NCBI GenBank assembly: GCA_021160865.1
Contig: JAGHBS010000126.1
Location: 1-36,511, forward strand
Length of the DNA: 36,511 nucleotides
Reading direction: 5' to 3'
Source of the DNA: Planctomycetota bacterium
Lineage (GTDB): Bacteria; Planctomycetota; Phycisphaerae; SM23-33
The notes beneath the pieces were generated by a model. It worked only from the letters and a program-made list of their open reading frames with translations. It was not told where the DNA came from and did no database searches. The position numbers and the translations under genes are program-made. The first letter of the stretch is position 1; every line of letters begins with the position of its first letter. Below are positions 32,451-36,511 of the stretch, in pieces.

Positions 32451-33584
32451 ATGAGTCGAAGTTGCCCGATAATTGGTATCACGATGGGCGATCCATGTGG
32501 GATCGGCCCGGAGATAATCGTTAAGGCATTGGCTGATGAATCGCTATGCTGCCAGGGGCGCTTCGTTATCTTCGGGTTCAGTGAGATGATTGCTTATGCT
32601 GCTGACCTTGCCGAGGTTGATCTCCGTTGGTATCGCGATCATTATGAAGATTTCCTCAATTCCGCCTCCAGTATCAGTGCTCGGAGCCGGGCTTGGAGGG
32701 AACGACAGGATAATGATAATGGCAGCGGGCTTGGTGCTGACCAGGTAGATATCAACCCTGGAATAACGGTGCTGGATTATGACGAACTGACGATGCCAAT
32801 TCTTGGTGAGCATCGTCCGAACCGCTATAGTGGCAAAGCGAGTATGGCTTTTCTGGAAGATGCCATCGATGCAGCCAAGAGGAGGCTTATCGATGCACTC
32901 GTAACCGCTCCGATATCGAAACATGCTTGGCGTCTGGCAGGATACAAATTTCCCGGACATACCGAACTGCTTGCCAAGAGGACCGGAACGAAAAATTATG
33001 CAATGATGTTTGTTGCACCTGCAATGAAGGTAATCCTTGCTACTACCCATGAATCCCTTGCAGAGGTTCCCGTGCATCTGACCATTGGGCGAGTTTTCAA
33101 TCCGATCGACTTGGCAGATAAGGCATTGCGTGAATGGTTCGGAATAGAACATCCAAGGATTGCTGTTTGTGGGCTTAATCCTCACGCCGGCGAGGGTGGT
33201 CAATTCGGCGACGAGGAGAAGCGTATCATCTCACCTGCTATCCTAATGGCAAGCGAGGCAGGGATTGACGTCAGCGGTCCATATCCAGCCGATACACTTT
33301 TTCGCCAGGCATTAGATGGGCAGTTTGATTGCGTTGTGGCAATGTATCACGATCAAGCGATGATTCCGCTGAAATTGATTGCATGGTCTGAAGCAGTAAA
33401 TCTTACTGTGGGTTTGCCGATTATCCGTACCAGCCCTGGCCATGGTACCGCCTTTGACATCGCTGGTAAGAATCGTGCCGATGCCTCACCGATGAAGGCG
33501 GCGATACGCCTGGCGATGGATTTAGCCCGACGACGAATGGAGAAAAATACTAAGACTACTGACGAAAGAGTTAAGAAGACCTGA
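32451..33584 (+). CDS. pdxA: 4-hydroxythreonine-4-phosphate dehydrogenase
   Basis: 377 aa. Motifs: IGITMGDPCGIGPEI, GHTELLA, GLNPHAGEGG, YHDQAMIPLK, IRTSPGHGTAFDIAGK. Confidence 0.88.
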   Translation: MSRSCPIIGITMGDPCGIGPEIIVKALADESLCCQGRFVIFGFSEMIAYAADLAEVDLRWYRDHYEDFLNSASSISARSRAWRERQDNDNGSGLGADQVDINPGITVLDYDELTMPILGEHRPNRYSGKASMAFLEDAIDAAKRRLIDALVTAPISKHAWRLAGYKFPGHTELLAKRTGTKNYAMMFVAPAMKVILATTHESLAEVPVHLTIGRVFNPIDLADKALREWFGIEHPRIAVCGLNPHAGEGGQFGDEEKRIISPAILMASEAGIDVSGPYPADTLFRQALDGQFDCVVAMYHDQAMIPLKLIAWSEAVNLTVGLPIIRTSPGHGTAFDIAGKNRADASPMKAAIRLAMDLARRRMEKNTKTTDERVKKT

Positions 33585-33633
33585 CTCTTCAGTACTTTTG
33601 TTCCTCGTCGCACAGTAATCTATTTTACCTTGC

Positions 33634-35181
33634 TTATGGAGTAGTTGACTTTTTCTTTTTGCGTGTTTTCCCAAGCGATAAAATACGATTAACAACAGCA
33701 AGATACGCCTTGGCAGAGGCTTCGACGATATCCGTGCTGATACCTCTGGCACGGAGTCTTTCGCCGTTGTGGGTGACTTCTATGGTGACTTCACCCTGTG
33801 CGTCTTTGCCGGAGGTCAGTGCGCGCAGCGAATAATCGGTAAGTTTCAATTTTATCCCTGTTATTCTGCCGATGGCTTCATAGGCTGCATCGATAGGCCC
33901 GTCGCCTGTAGCGGCATCGACGACCTTTTTGCCTTCCTTCGAGAGTGTGACCGTGGCCGTCGGTATGGTATTTGTCCCAGCAGTTGTTTGAAGCGATTCA
34001 AGTCGCCACACCTCTACCCCTGCAGATGCTTGCTGCTTTATCAATGCCTCGATATCCGCATCGTAGATATCCTTTTTCTTATCTGCTAATTCGATGAACT
34101 TCTGATATGCCTCGTTGAGTTGTGTTTTGGTGAGTTTATATCCCAATGCCTTTATCCGCTGTTCAAATCCATGTCTGCCGGAGTGTTTGCCCAATACCAG
34201 TCGACTTGAAGGCAGTCCAATATCTTCGGGCTTCATTATTTCGTACGTCCTGCGGTCCGATAAGATGCCGTGCTGGTGAATGCCTGCCTCATGTGCGAAG
34301 GCATTTTCGCCAACGATGGCTTTATTCCGCTGAAGATGCATCCCCGTTATAGAGGCAACGAGTCTGGAAGCAGGATATATCTTTGTCGTATCAATATCTG
34401 TCGTTGCATTGAAGTAATCTTCTCTGGTCTTGATAGCCATAACAATTTCTTCCAGTGCTGCGTTTCCTGCTCTCTCGCCAATACCATTGATAGTGCATTC
34501 GACCTGATCGGCACCCGCCGATACCGCAGCAAGGGAATTAGCAACGGCTAATCCCAAATCATTATGACAGTGGACGCTGATAACTGCTTTATCAATATTG
34601 GCTACATTTTCACGGAGGTAGCTGATAAGTTCAGCAAACTGTGCAGGAATGGCGTACCCGACGGTATCAGGAATATTTACAGTGGTGGCACCGGCATCAA
34701 TAACGGCTGAAACAACCTCGACAAGGAAGTCAGGTTCGGTACGGGAGGCATCTTCCGGAGAGAACTCCACGTCATCAGTGTATTTCAATGCCCTTCGGAC
34801 TGCTTCGACGCTCATCTTTACAATTTCGCTCTTGGCACGTTTGAGTTTATATTTGCGGTGTATCTGACTGGTAGCACAAAAGACATGAATTCGAGGTCGG
34901 GCTGCCCTTGCCAATGCCTCGCCAGCGATGTCAATGTCCTTTGCAATAGACCTTGCAAGTGCTGCAATGGTGCAACTTTTAATTTCCTTGGCCACCGCTT
35001 TGACTGCCTCAAAATCGCCTGGTGAGGCTATCGGAAAACCTGCCTCGATGACATCAACCTTTAACTGCTCAAGCATTTGGGCGACTTCCAACTTCTCGTT
35101 GAGATTCATACTGCAGCTCGGAGATTGCTCGCCGTCTCGAAGCGTCGTATCAAAGATTATGATTTTCCTTTGCTTAGCCAT
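33634..35181 (-). CDS. leuA: 2-isopropylmalate synthase
   Basis: The track ORF extends to GTG 35190. I chose ATG 35181 (MAKQRKIIIFDTTLRDGEQSP) because it follows an AAGGTG Shine-Dalgarno. HCHNDLGLAVAN is present, as is the C-terminal LeuA allosteric/dimerisation domain. Confidence 0.92.
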   Translation of the reverse strand: MAKQRKIIIFDTTLRDGEQSPSCSMNLNEKLEVAQMLEQLKVDVIEAGFPIASPGDFEAVKAVAKEIKSCTIAALARSIAKDIDIAGEALARAARPRIHVFCATSQIHRKYKLKRAKSEIVKMSVEAVRRALKYTDDVEFSPEDASRTEPDFLVEVVSAVIDAGATTVNIPDTVGYAIPAQFAELISYLRENVANIDKAVISVHCHNDLGLAVANSLAAVSAGADQVECTINGIGERAGNAALEEIVMAIKTREDYFNATTDIDTTKIYPASRLVASITGMHLQRNKAIVGENAFAHEAGIHQHGILSDRRTYEIMKPEDIGLPSSRLVLGKHSGRHGFEQRIKALGYKLTKTQLNEAYQKFIELADKKKDIYDADIEALIKQQASAGVEVWRLESLQTTAGTNTIPTATVTLSKEGKKVVDAATGDGPIDAAYEAIGRITGIKLKLTDYSLRALTSGKDAQGEVTIEVTHNGERLRARGISTDIVEASAKAYLAVVNRILSLGKTRKKKKSTTP

Positions 35182-35292
35182 CTTTATCACCTTTCAATCA
35201 GCCCTGTCATTTTGCATTTTATCATAACCGATTTGCCTACTCCTGCTTACCTGACAAAAGAAAGTGCCAATAGCAGGCAGGTTGAAAATCAT

Positions 35293-35323
35293 ATAAAAAA
35301 CCGCGACCGATTTCAGCCGCGGT
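35293..35323 (-). terminator. Intrinsic terminator (attenuator) in the leuA leader
   Basis: The minus strand reads ACCGCGGCUG-AAAU-CGGUCGCGGU, a 10-bp stem that includes two G-U pairs (35323..35300). Five more U residues follow (35299..35295). It lies 114 nt upstream of the leuA ATG and downstream of the Leu-rich leader ORF. Confidence 0.65.
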
Positions 35324-35346
35324 AGTGAATAGGCATTCACCCGCAG
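35317..35346 (-). promoter_or_regulatory. Candidate antiterminator hairpin, mutually exclusive with the leuA leader terminator
   Basis: The minus strand reads CUGCGG-GUGAAU-GCCU-AUUCAC-UA-CCGCGG. The 3' arm CCGCGG (35322..35317) is also part of the 5' arm of the terminator. The 5' arm begins 4 nt after the leader-peptide stop codon. Confidence 0.5.
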
Positions 35347-35350
35347 CCGC

Positions 35351-35452
35351 TCAGCACAAAAGCCCTAACAACAACCCTGCCAGTTTTCCTTCGACCTTAC
35401 CAGCGGTCGGGTTTACTTTACTCGAAATAGGACTTTTGTACCAGCAGCTCAT
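35351..35452 (-). CDS. Putative leucine-rich leader peptide (33 aa) controlling leuA by attenuation
   Basis: Below the ORF-track size cutoff. ATG at 35452..35450 follows the purine-rich AAGGAAGAG. The translation is MSCWYKSPISSKVNPTAGKVEGKLAGLLLGLLC*. Six of the last ten codons are Leu (CTG, TTG, TTG, TTA, CTT, TTG). The TGA stop is at 35353..35351. Confidence 0.55.
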   Translation of the reverse strand: MSCWYKSPISSKVNPTAGKVEGKLAGLLLGLLC

Positions 35453-35477
35453 GCTCTTCCTTGCCTCTTATTCTTAT

Positions 35478-35486
35478 ATTATATCA
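35478..35486 (-). promoter_or_regulatory. Extended -10 promoter element (TGaTATAAT) for the leuA leader transcript
   Basis: The minus strand reads TGATATAAT (35486..35478), about 26 nt upstream of the leader ATG. The -35 is poor (CTTCTC), which is compatible with an extended -10 promoter. Confidence 0.4.
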
Positions 35487-36020
35487 CGCTACAGGTAGGA
35501 GAGAAGAACAAACTTTCAATTCGTTGGTGAGTTTCAAACCCTGCTCTGTAAGTTATGCAATTACGGTGGACTGTACAGACGCCAGCTTTTACGTTTTAGA
35601 ATGCTGCTGATTTCTATACCATCGATATTTGACGAATATGCAGGATTGCAAGACAGATAGGTTCTAAAGGATTTGCTTTGCGAAGGATAGGGTAATAATT
35701 TTGTGAGACTGTCCATGATGAGAGATGATATTATCAAGCCAGCCGAGAAAAAGAAGATAACTGCTTAGGCATTGACCTTTTGTTTTGATTGGTGCGGGAG
35801 TGGATTAAGGGTAAGGGTTTTCAGTGTCGAGCTTGATGAAAGAAGGGTAAGCCGGTTTTCCTTTCTCCTGTGAGATTTTAGCCTAAGGGGGTATAATATT
35901 ATTCCTGCAATAAACGAGTATTGGGCATTATGGATTTCACGTGTAGGAAGGAAAAAGACTCAAAAGGGGTTCACAAAGAAGTTCCTTCTATAAGACAAGA
36001 AAAGAGAAAGGAGCATACGG

Positions 36021-36511
36021 ATGGAAAAAGCAATTCAGCGATGCGGTTTTGTTGCAGTTGTGGTATTTGTTTGCTTCGCTGCTATCAATCAGGGTTATGG
36101 AGCGATCAATTCCTGGGGCGACGTTCAGCCACCTGATCCATCCACGTGGACGAGCGACACAACTGCCTACATCGGTAAAGATGCCAATGGTGGAATAAGC
36201 GTTACCGAAGGCGACCACATAGTAGCCCATGAAGCCTACCTTGGTTATAATGAGGACGCATCCGGGATAGTCACCATTGATGGTGTAGGTTCAAGCTGGA
36301 ACTGCTATAGAGGGAGTCTTTACGTCGGCGGTTCCGGTCAGGGGACGCTGGAAATCAGCAACGGTGGATCTGTCAGTTGCTGGTATGGATATATCGGCAA
36401 TGAAACTGACTCGACGGGAGAAGTATCCATTGATGGTGCAGGTTCAAGCTGGTACTGCGAGTACCGTCTTTCCATTGGCTACTATGGTGGGGGGACGCTG
36501 GAAATAAGCAA
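36021..36511 (+). CDS. Secreted surface protein with T5SS/PEP-CTERM-associated-type beta-strand repeats, N-terminal part; continues past the window end
   Basis: Not in the ORF track because it runs off the edge. ATG 36021 follows an AAAGGAG Shine-Dalgarno. The translation begins MEKAIQRCGFVAVVVFVCFAAINQGYG (signal peptide). Repeated blocks G.V.IDG.GSSW.C...L.(V/I)G..G.GTLEIS(NGG.V) follow. Confidence 0.8.
   Translation, partial: MEKAIQRCGFVAVVVFVCFAAINQGYGAINSWGDVQPPDPSTWTSDTTAYIGKDANGGISVTEGDHIVAHEAYLGYNEDASGIVTIDGVGSSWNCYRGSLYVGGSGQGTLEISNGGSVSCWYGYIGNETDSTGEVSIDGAGSSWYCEYRLSIGYYGGGTLEIS
36276..36511 (+). repeat. Tandem coding repeats of about 150-153 nt (50-51 aa) within the surface-protein gene
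   Basis: ATTGATGGTGTAGGTTCAAGCTGGAACTGC at 36276 recurs as ATTGATGGTGCAGGTTCAAGCTGGTACTGC at 36429. GGGGACGCTGGAAATCAGCAA at 36341 recurs as GGGGACGCTGGAAATAAGCAA at 36491. Confidence 0.75.

Follow-up and report, generated by a model that had tools for sequence, protein, structure and literature searches.

A predicted leucine leader-peptide attenuator upstream of leuA in a Planctomycetota contig

The minus strand of a 36,511-nucleotide stretch of Planctomycetota DNA (contig JAGHBS010000126.1; the whole stretch is called the window below) carries leuA, the gene for 2-isopropylmalate synthase, and ahead of it a leader with a short, leucine-rich upstream open reading frame (uORF). An earlier note, made by reading the sequence, had proposed that this leader is a leucine attenuator in which a terminator and an antiterminator exclude each other. 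The specificity for leucine, the locus-specific complementarity of the pairing segments, the leaders of relatives and folds constrained by ribosome position all support that proposal. We consider it very probable that the element is a ribosome-mediated leader-peptide transcription attenuator, one that would tie leuA expression to the level of charged tRNA-Leu. Computation recovers the sequence features that mark this class: an open reading frame (ORF) with a start and a ribosome-binding site (RBS), a cluster of Leu codons, a terminator, an antiterminator exclusive of it, a pairing of the 1:2 type, and a gene of the leucine pathway downstream. Translation of the uORF and a response of leuA to leucine are predictions that follow from this architecture.

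Leader anatomy and predicted switching

The leader begins with an extended -10 element, TGATATAAT, at 35486..35478 (minus strand, as are all leader coordinates given here). It was read directly from the sequence at the position claimed before, matches TGnTATAAT, and lies 26 nt upstream of the ATG of the uORF. A simple sigma-70 scan found no good -35 partner for it and, for that reason, did not list it. Transcription would presumably begin a few bases beyond the element, at about 35471. The purine-rich Shine-Dalgarno region AAGAGGCAAGGAAGAG (35468..35454) follows, with AGGA 6 nt before the ATG of a leader ORF of 33 codons plus TGA, MSCWYKSPISSKVNPTAGKVEGKLAGLLLGLLC (ATG at 35452, TGA at 35353..35351). 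leuA has AGGTGA 6 nt before its own ATG, which makes Shine-Dalgarno-led initiation plausible in this genome. The ribosome-binding site and the ORF are as first described, including a tail in which Leu makes up 6 of the final 10 codons. The candidate regulatory codons, at 35357..35383, are Leu24 (CUG), Leu27-29 (UUG UUG UUA) and Leu31-32 (CUU UUG).

Such a tail is exceptional within the window. Leu accounts for 9.8% of the codons in window genes, and simple binomial arithmetic from this figure gives an expectation of ~1.3e-4 per ORF for at least six Leu in ten codons. When all 381 ATG ORFs of 10-60 codons on both window strands were considered, the leader uORF was the single one with at least five Leu among its last ten codons. 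The leader also folds unusually well, with a predicted energy of -70.8 kcal/mol and z = -4.7 relative to dinucleotide shuffles.

The terminator and the antiterminator compete for the same bases. The intrinsic terminator, ACCGCGGCUG-AAAU-CGGUCGCGGU (35323..35300), is a 10-bp stem with 7 G-C pairs (dG -16.6 kcal/mol) followed by six U (35299..35294); both the hairpin and the U-run stand as originally reported, and this is the sole 10-bp terminator-like site in 33000..36511. It ends ~114 nt upstream of the leuA ATG at 35181. The hairpin that the earlier note had drawn as its competitor, CUGCGG-GUGAAU-GCCU-AUUCAC-UA-CCGCGG at 35346..35317, is present, but it does not span the full antiterminator. 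In the longer form, CGGCUGCGG-GUGAAU-GCCU-AUUCAC-UA-CCGCGGCUG (35314..35349), CGGCUGCGG at 35349..35341 pairs with CCGCGGCUG at 35322..35314, and GUGAAU/AUUCAC is stacked above. This antiterminator has a dG of -20.1 kcal/mol, compared with -13.2 kcal/mol for the shorter version, and is more stable than the terminator hairpin. As 9 nt are common to the antiterminator and the 5' arm of the terminator, the two structures are mutually exclusive.

A third helix completes the arrangement. In minimum-free-energy structures, AGCUGCUGGUACAAAAGUCCUA (35428..35449), which comprises uORF codons 2-9 and abuts the AUG, pairs with UAGGGCUUUUGUGCUGAGCGGCU (35345..35367), which starts at Leu29, includes the stop codon and extends 6 nt beyond it, ending in GCGGCU. 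The resulting anti-antiterminator helix is 22 bp long (35449..35428 with 35367..35345), and its 3' arm shares 5 nt with the 5' arm of the antiterminator. Because the uORF start is paired with the Leu and stop region of the same ORF, a finished leader would occlude its own start codon. As modelled, the topology is the classical 1:2 / 2:3 / 3:4 arrangement: region 1 is the uORF start; region 2 comprises the last Leu codons, the stop codon and the post-stop bases; and regions 3 and 4 are the 5' and 3' arms of the terminator. A different 1:2-type helix, between ACCCGACCGCU (35402..35412) and AGCGGCUGCGGGU, had been suggested before. That pairing is possible, as RNAduplex finds it with a 1x3 internal loop once the uORF start is omitted, but it is not the main one. 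It lies outside the minimum-free-energy structure, where the ACCCGACCGCU segment occupies a local hairpin and the 22-bp helix with the uORF start forms instead.

These elements suggest the following sequence of events. A ribosome would load on the leader ORF as RNA polymerase proceeds. With plentiful Leu-tRNA, it would reach Cys33 or the UGA and cover CGGCUGCGG; the terminator would then form, and the transcript would end ~114 nt before leuA. With scarce Leu-tRNA, the ribosome would stall at Leu 24, 27-29 or 31 and leave CGGCUGCGG free. Once CCGCGGCUG is transcribed, the free CGGCUGCGG would pair with it and sequester the 5' arm of the terminator, allowing read-through into leuA. Without any ribosome, the first ORF codons would form the 22-bp helix with the Leu29-to-stop region. 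Since this helix takes up part of the antiterminator arm, the default state would be termination.

Folding of the leader with a ribosome placed at successive positions agrees with these expectations. Each ribosome was represented by a mask that covered 18 nt before the first A-site base and 12 nt after it, a footprint that, like the folding kinetics, is presumed; the RNA behind the ribosome was masked too. In full-length constrained folds, all 10 of the 10 terminator pairs formed in the absence of a ribosome. With a ribosome stalled at Leu24, 27, 28, 29 or 31, none of the 10 formed, and the antiterminator took their place. All 10 formed again once the ribosome stood at Leu32 or the stop codon. 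We also folded co-transcriptional snapshots, in which the leader ended before the 3' arm of the terminator. These contained 8-9 antiterminator pairs at every ribosome position except Cys33 and the stop, where they contained 0. Thus, with the upstream RNA masked, the folds reproduce the switch between the two conformers that the earlier note had proposed to compare. They bear out its claim that a ribosome at the stop codon favors the terminator. Its companion claim, that stalling at Leu27-29 favors the antiterminator, is borne out for those codons, but the effect is not restricted to them: it extends from Leu24 to Leu31, and Leu32 acts like the stop.

Related leaders upstream of leuA

LeuA-based searches of genome and metagenome contigs yielded 160 loci. 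The best LeuA matches in the initial search were ~70% identical and came from metagenome-assembled genomes (MAGs) of Planctomycetota. The nearest LeuA proteins are from this phylum, and the closest named lineage is Phycisphaerae, which fits the earlier impression that the window is not enterobacterial. At least 200 nt of upstream sequence was available for 151 loci, and in 41 of these a strict terminator lies 330 nt or less upstream of leuA. We scored a uORF tail as Leu-rich if its final 14 codons included 5 or more Leu and the uORF ended within 100 nt upstream of the terminator. Such a tail was found in 26 of the 41 terminator-bearing loci. In the same 41 loci, the count of equivalent tails was 0 for every remaining amino acid (19 in all, with the six-codon Ser and Arg among them).

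The pairing segments are also matched to each other locus by locus. Duplexes between the stop region and the 5' arm of the terminator averaged -20.6 kcal/mol within a locus and -15.1 kcal/mol between loci (permutation p<2e-4), and those between the 5' part of the uORF and the stop region averaged -26.7 and -22.3 kcal/mol, respectively (p<2e-4). Two control pairings were not locus-specific (p = 0.34 and 0.80). In ribosome-position snapshots of 24 related leaders, the 5' arm of the terminator was pre-paired under a Leu stall and freed with the ribosome at the stop in 21. Throughout this set, the stop codon is consistently positioned for a terminating ribosome to cover the antiterminator arm.

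A further protein search provided closer relatives, two of which, L163 (81% LeuA identity) and L167, were left out because their upstream sequence was too short. L161 and L162 align with the window leader throughout, and the terminator is conserved in both. L161, with 97% LeuA identity, has a leader that is cut at the contig end and a peptide that ends in ...LVDLLLGLLC. It carries TTA TTA TTA in place of TTG TTG TTA, and its stop codon is TAA rather than TGA; these synonymous Leu changes and the exchanged stop point to constraint on coding. L162, with 89% LeuA identity, has the same three helices as the window leader and a 33-codon ORF, MSRWCESPVSNKTRLADDKVEAGLVRLLSGLLC, in the same frame and with the same end (...GLVRLLSGLLC); its aligned extended -10 is TGGTATAAT. 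The N- and C-terminal parts of its peptide, which contain the helix arms and the Leu codons, are conserved, while the middle has diverged. Judged by eye, the changes in its long helix are compatible with pairing, save for the loss of a terminal pair. Its antiterminator has an upper stem rebuilt as UGAAUGA/UCAUUCA and a lower stem that still pairs. In more distant relatives, again judged by eye, sequences resembling TTGACA/TATAAT promoters appear to lie directly before the leader ORFs.

Seven leaders of Phycisphaerae type (L001, L002, L081, L164, L165, L168 and L170) share the consensus M[IV]R[QR]R.SL.LLL.GLLLR. Pairing in these leaders reaches 94-98% for each of the three helices, compared with 22-56% when the partners are slid; the helix equivalent to the anti-antiterminator is 94.5% paired. 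Their alignment contains one GC-to-AU compensatory pair in the antiterminator. Their stop region and terminator can be aligned by eye with those of the window (GGGCUUUUG..CUGA.CGG..GCGG / CCGCGG). In common with the window leader, they have the ...GLLL(R/C)-stop ending, the post-stop CGG..GCGG arm, a CCGCG-containing terminator, and a helix joining the uORF start to the stop region. Two features set apart the window lineage, which includes L161 and L162: an ORF of 33 codons, as opposed to 18-20, and the additional antiterminator upper stem GUGAAU/AUUCAC. A covariance model built from the seven leaders also finds leaders at many further leuA loci. The Phycisphaerae-type leaders appear to be the window element's own family, and Planctomycetia leaders show the same architecture as the window leader. 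The earlier expectation that gene callers would miss the leader ORF holds for the public gene calls of five contigs (L162, L164, L165, L168 and L170). Its absence from the gene calls of every related contig retrieved indicates that the family is systematically unannotated. The window leader is probably Phycisphaerae-related and appears to belong to a widespread planctomycete family without annotation in public gene calls.

The same comparison bears on whether the uORF encodes a functional small hydrophobic, perhaps membrane, peptide, with the hairpin serving as its terminator or as an insulator before an independently transcribed leuA. The C-terminal GLLLGLLC is indeed hydrophobic, and a weak promoter-like match, CTGAAA-17-TATGAT (35316..35288), overlaps the terminator. 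However, this match reaches 9/12, which is within the expectation from shuffled sequence. The peptides of relatives range from 14 to 33 amino acids and vary widely in sequence, with the Leu run alone in common, and the middle part has already diverged in L162, whose LeuA is 89% identical. The leader ORF has no Pfam match, the link in many genomes is specifically to leuA, and complementarity to an antiterminator would be pointless for a plain terminator. We therefore regard a peptide with a function of its own as very unlikely.

Several observations weigh against the attenuator reading. First, when no mask covers the 5' arm in the uORF, the terminator is preferred at equilibrium despite a stall at Leu27-29, and the outer 7 bp of the 22-bp helix persist. 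Since the terminator wins when this arm is free, the switch would need kinetic trapping or trailing ribosomes that occupy the upstream RNA. Classical attenuators likewise rely on kinetics or on occupied upstream RNA. Second, equilibrium folds of full-length RNA switch in just 5 of the 24 related leaders. The terminators of the relatives are very stable, which accounts for this low number, and their case rests on the co-transcriptional snapshots. Third, the leader Leu codons, UUG, CUG, CUU and UUA, are not rare in the genome; E. coli leuL, by comparison, uses rare CUA codons. Fourth, the stem covariation that the earlier note had proposed to test for is largely one-sided in these small alignments (G-U compatible), with a single double change; the Leu-run uORF and the terminator, which it had also wanted compared, are conserved. 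Finally, the only window match of the seven-leader covariance model, at 35291..35399 on the minus strand, is weak (15.8 bits, rough E 0.006-0.011).

How far the family extends is a broader question. Its leaders are found in Phycisphaerae-like lineages, Planctomycetaceae and Pirellulaceae, and apparently in Gemmataceae. We give roughly even chances, from sequence comparison, to the proposal that Planctomycetota leuA leaders form a phylum-wide family of Leu attenuators, absent from Rfam and laid out so that each uORF start pairs with the Leu and stop region of the same ORF, whose conservation is evidence for coupling of transcription and translation. As the mechanism requires a ribosome close behind RNA polymerase, conservation of the family would be indirect, sequence-level evidence for such coupling. 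If true, this evidence would extend to Gemmataceae, a group for which nucleus-like compartmentation is debated (PMC6212462, PMC6554331). The leader would also represent a regulatory feature missed by both gene callers and Rfam in a little-studied phylum, ahead of the gene for the committed step in making leucine, with the same device recurring in many planctomycete lineages. The leader ORFs, the terminators and the first covariance model could be used for genome annotation, and they predict leucine-responsive expression. Given that the mechanism is textbook, a specialist would expect it rather than be surprised by it. We found no relevant description of leader-peptide attenuation in Planctomycetes in the literature searched, in which one paper counts planctomycete leader genes close to structural genes (PMC4833913). 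A prediction for this phylum may have been made earlier, for example in the broad survey by Lopatovskaya et al. (2010, Mol Biol 44:128).

Two further groups of loci were recorded in the course of this comparison. In MAGs of Gemmataceae (L011, L013, L014, L015 and L048), Leu-containing uORFs, such as MLRLARLMDTLLLRLYGVRSTVRAS, MNFQALLLEELPLLRSFRGG... and MISTLLLESLLLPP..., precede a strong terminator in the region ~80-200 nt before leuA. In L013 and in L014/L015, an in-ORF UUCCGGGGC, which consists of Phe-Arg-Gly codons, is complementary to the terminator 5' arm GCCCCGGAA. Separately, four MAG loci labelled Pseudomonadota, Gammaproteobacteria or Woeseiaceae (L024, L027, L062 and L067), with LeuA ~58-61% identical, have Leu-run uORFs or covariance-model matches; L024, for example, has MMNFNNALLGLLNSLLLLGRRCG and a terminator upstream of leuA. 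Possible explanations for these four are leu leaders already known from Proteobacteria, a common origin, or errors of binning.

Known leucine leaders and alternative sensors

The closest functional parallel is leuL of E. coli and other enterobacteria (RF00512), which likewise stands before leuA and has a short Leu-run uORF, a terminator, an overlapping antiterminator and an upstream anti-antiterminator; in leuL, ribosome stalling at the Leu codons favors read-through (PMC5314783). The two differ in three respects. leuA appears monocistronic here, whereas enterobacteria have leuABCD; the protector helix here has the Leu codons in its 3' arm and the uORF start as its 5' arm; and the window leader uses common Leu codons. 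A search of 35000..36000 gave no match to the RF00512 Leu_leader model at E values up to 10. The window leader is a functional analogue of leuL that shares no detectable sequence similarity with it and stands outside the RF00512 family. Leu-rich uORFs with a terminator and an antiterminator also occur before leuA in Firmicutes, in the Streptococcus LeuA leaders identified by PASIFIC (PMC5314783) and in the Lactococcus leu/phe leader (RF01743). These leaders have diverged independently, showing that the mechanism recurs without sequence similarity (PMC5314783), and the window leader matches neither in Rfam. Term-seq and RNA-seq data exist for the Streptococcus leaders, whereas the window leader is predicted from sequence.

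The actinobacterial LEU element operates differently, and with it comes the question of whether leuA could be controlled at translation, either through pairing of the leader with the leuA RBS or through reinitiation of ribosomes at leuA. In the LEU element, a pseudoknot, the base stem is formed between Leu codons and the leuA Shine-Dalgarno sequence, and no terminator is obvious (PMC1262725). Reinitiation, for its part, has been suggested as a role of leader ORFs close to structural genes in several phyla, Planctomycetes among them (PMC4833913). The window leader, in contrast, has a strong intrinsic terminator that is conserved in relatives. Its best duplex with the leuA RBS, at -18.2 kcal/mol, is not above chance (shuffled-RBS mean -18.9 kcal/mol), and its uORF stop is 169 nt from the leuA ATG, far beyond the reinitiation peak at 10-16 nt (PMC4833913). 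Translational control of leuA by either route is thus extremely unlikely.

The switch could also be real but set by something other than a ribosome, such as an RNA-binding protein, uncharged tRNA-Leu acting as in a T-box, or a small ligand, with the Leu-rich ORF being incidental. A Leu-specific T-box (RF00230) would resemble the window leader in placing a terminator/antiterminator switch before amino-acid genes and in reporting tRNA charging. The high degree of structure in the leader would suit such a sensor. So would the fact that the conserved peptide sequence largely coincides with the helix arms, since RNA pairing alone could then explain part of the amino-acid conservation. In addition, mutations in the Streptomyces leuA leader reportedly had effects inconsistent with classical attenuation (PMC1262725). 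On the other hand, 35000..36000 gave no match to RF00230 or to any other relevant Rfam family at E up to 10; the lone Rfam listing in that interval, SNORD126 (E = 1.6), is noise. Rfam scans at gathering thresholds likewise returned nothing relevant, either for the entire window or for 20 related loci. The feature that is conserved here is a putatively translated Leu-rich ORF. Its enrichment is specific to Leu and is found across the phylum despite very diverse leader sequences, and structure alone would not select in-frame Leu codons between a start and a stop. The synonymous TTG-to-TTA and TGA-to-TAA changes in L161 and the consistent placement of the stop codon where a terminating ribosome covers the antiterminator arm also argue for a translating ribosome as the sensor. 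A non-ribosomal sensor is therefore improbable, and ribosome-mediated attenuation remains the reading that we prefer.

leuA and neighboring features of the window

leuA extends over 33634..35181 on the minus strand, with its ATG at 35181 as the earlier note had it. Its product scores 788 bits against NF002086 (cutoff 532) and 749 bits against TIGR00973 (cutoff 599), and it includes the leucine-binding LeuA allosteric domain. We conclude that it is a bona fide 2-isopropylmalate synthase. The exact protein, whether begun at an ATG or a GTG, has no database record. The gene is convergent with pdxA. PdxA, encoded at 32451..33584 on the plus strand, is matched by its family models in two stretches, with an apparent insertion at about residues 60-120 (...RSRAWRERQDNDNGSGLGADQ...).

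On its other side, the leader promoter is separated from a divergent gene by a spacer of ~535 nt (35487..36020), which lacks long ORFs, Rfam families and tRNAs and whose small ORFs have no Pfam match; a tRNA scan of the whole window also found none. The divergent gene (36021..36511, plus strand) begins at an ATG near 36021 and extends past the window end. Its product has a signal-peptide-like N-terminus, MEKAIQRCGFVAVVVFVCFAAINQGYGA, followed by repeated units of the G(S/G)GTLEIS type, which fits the autotransporter/PEP-CTERM-like repeat proteins mentioned in the earlier note.

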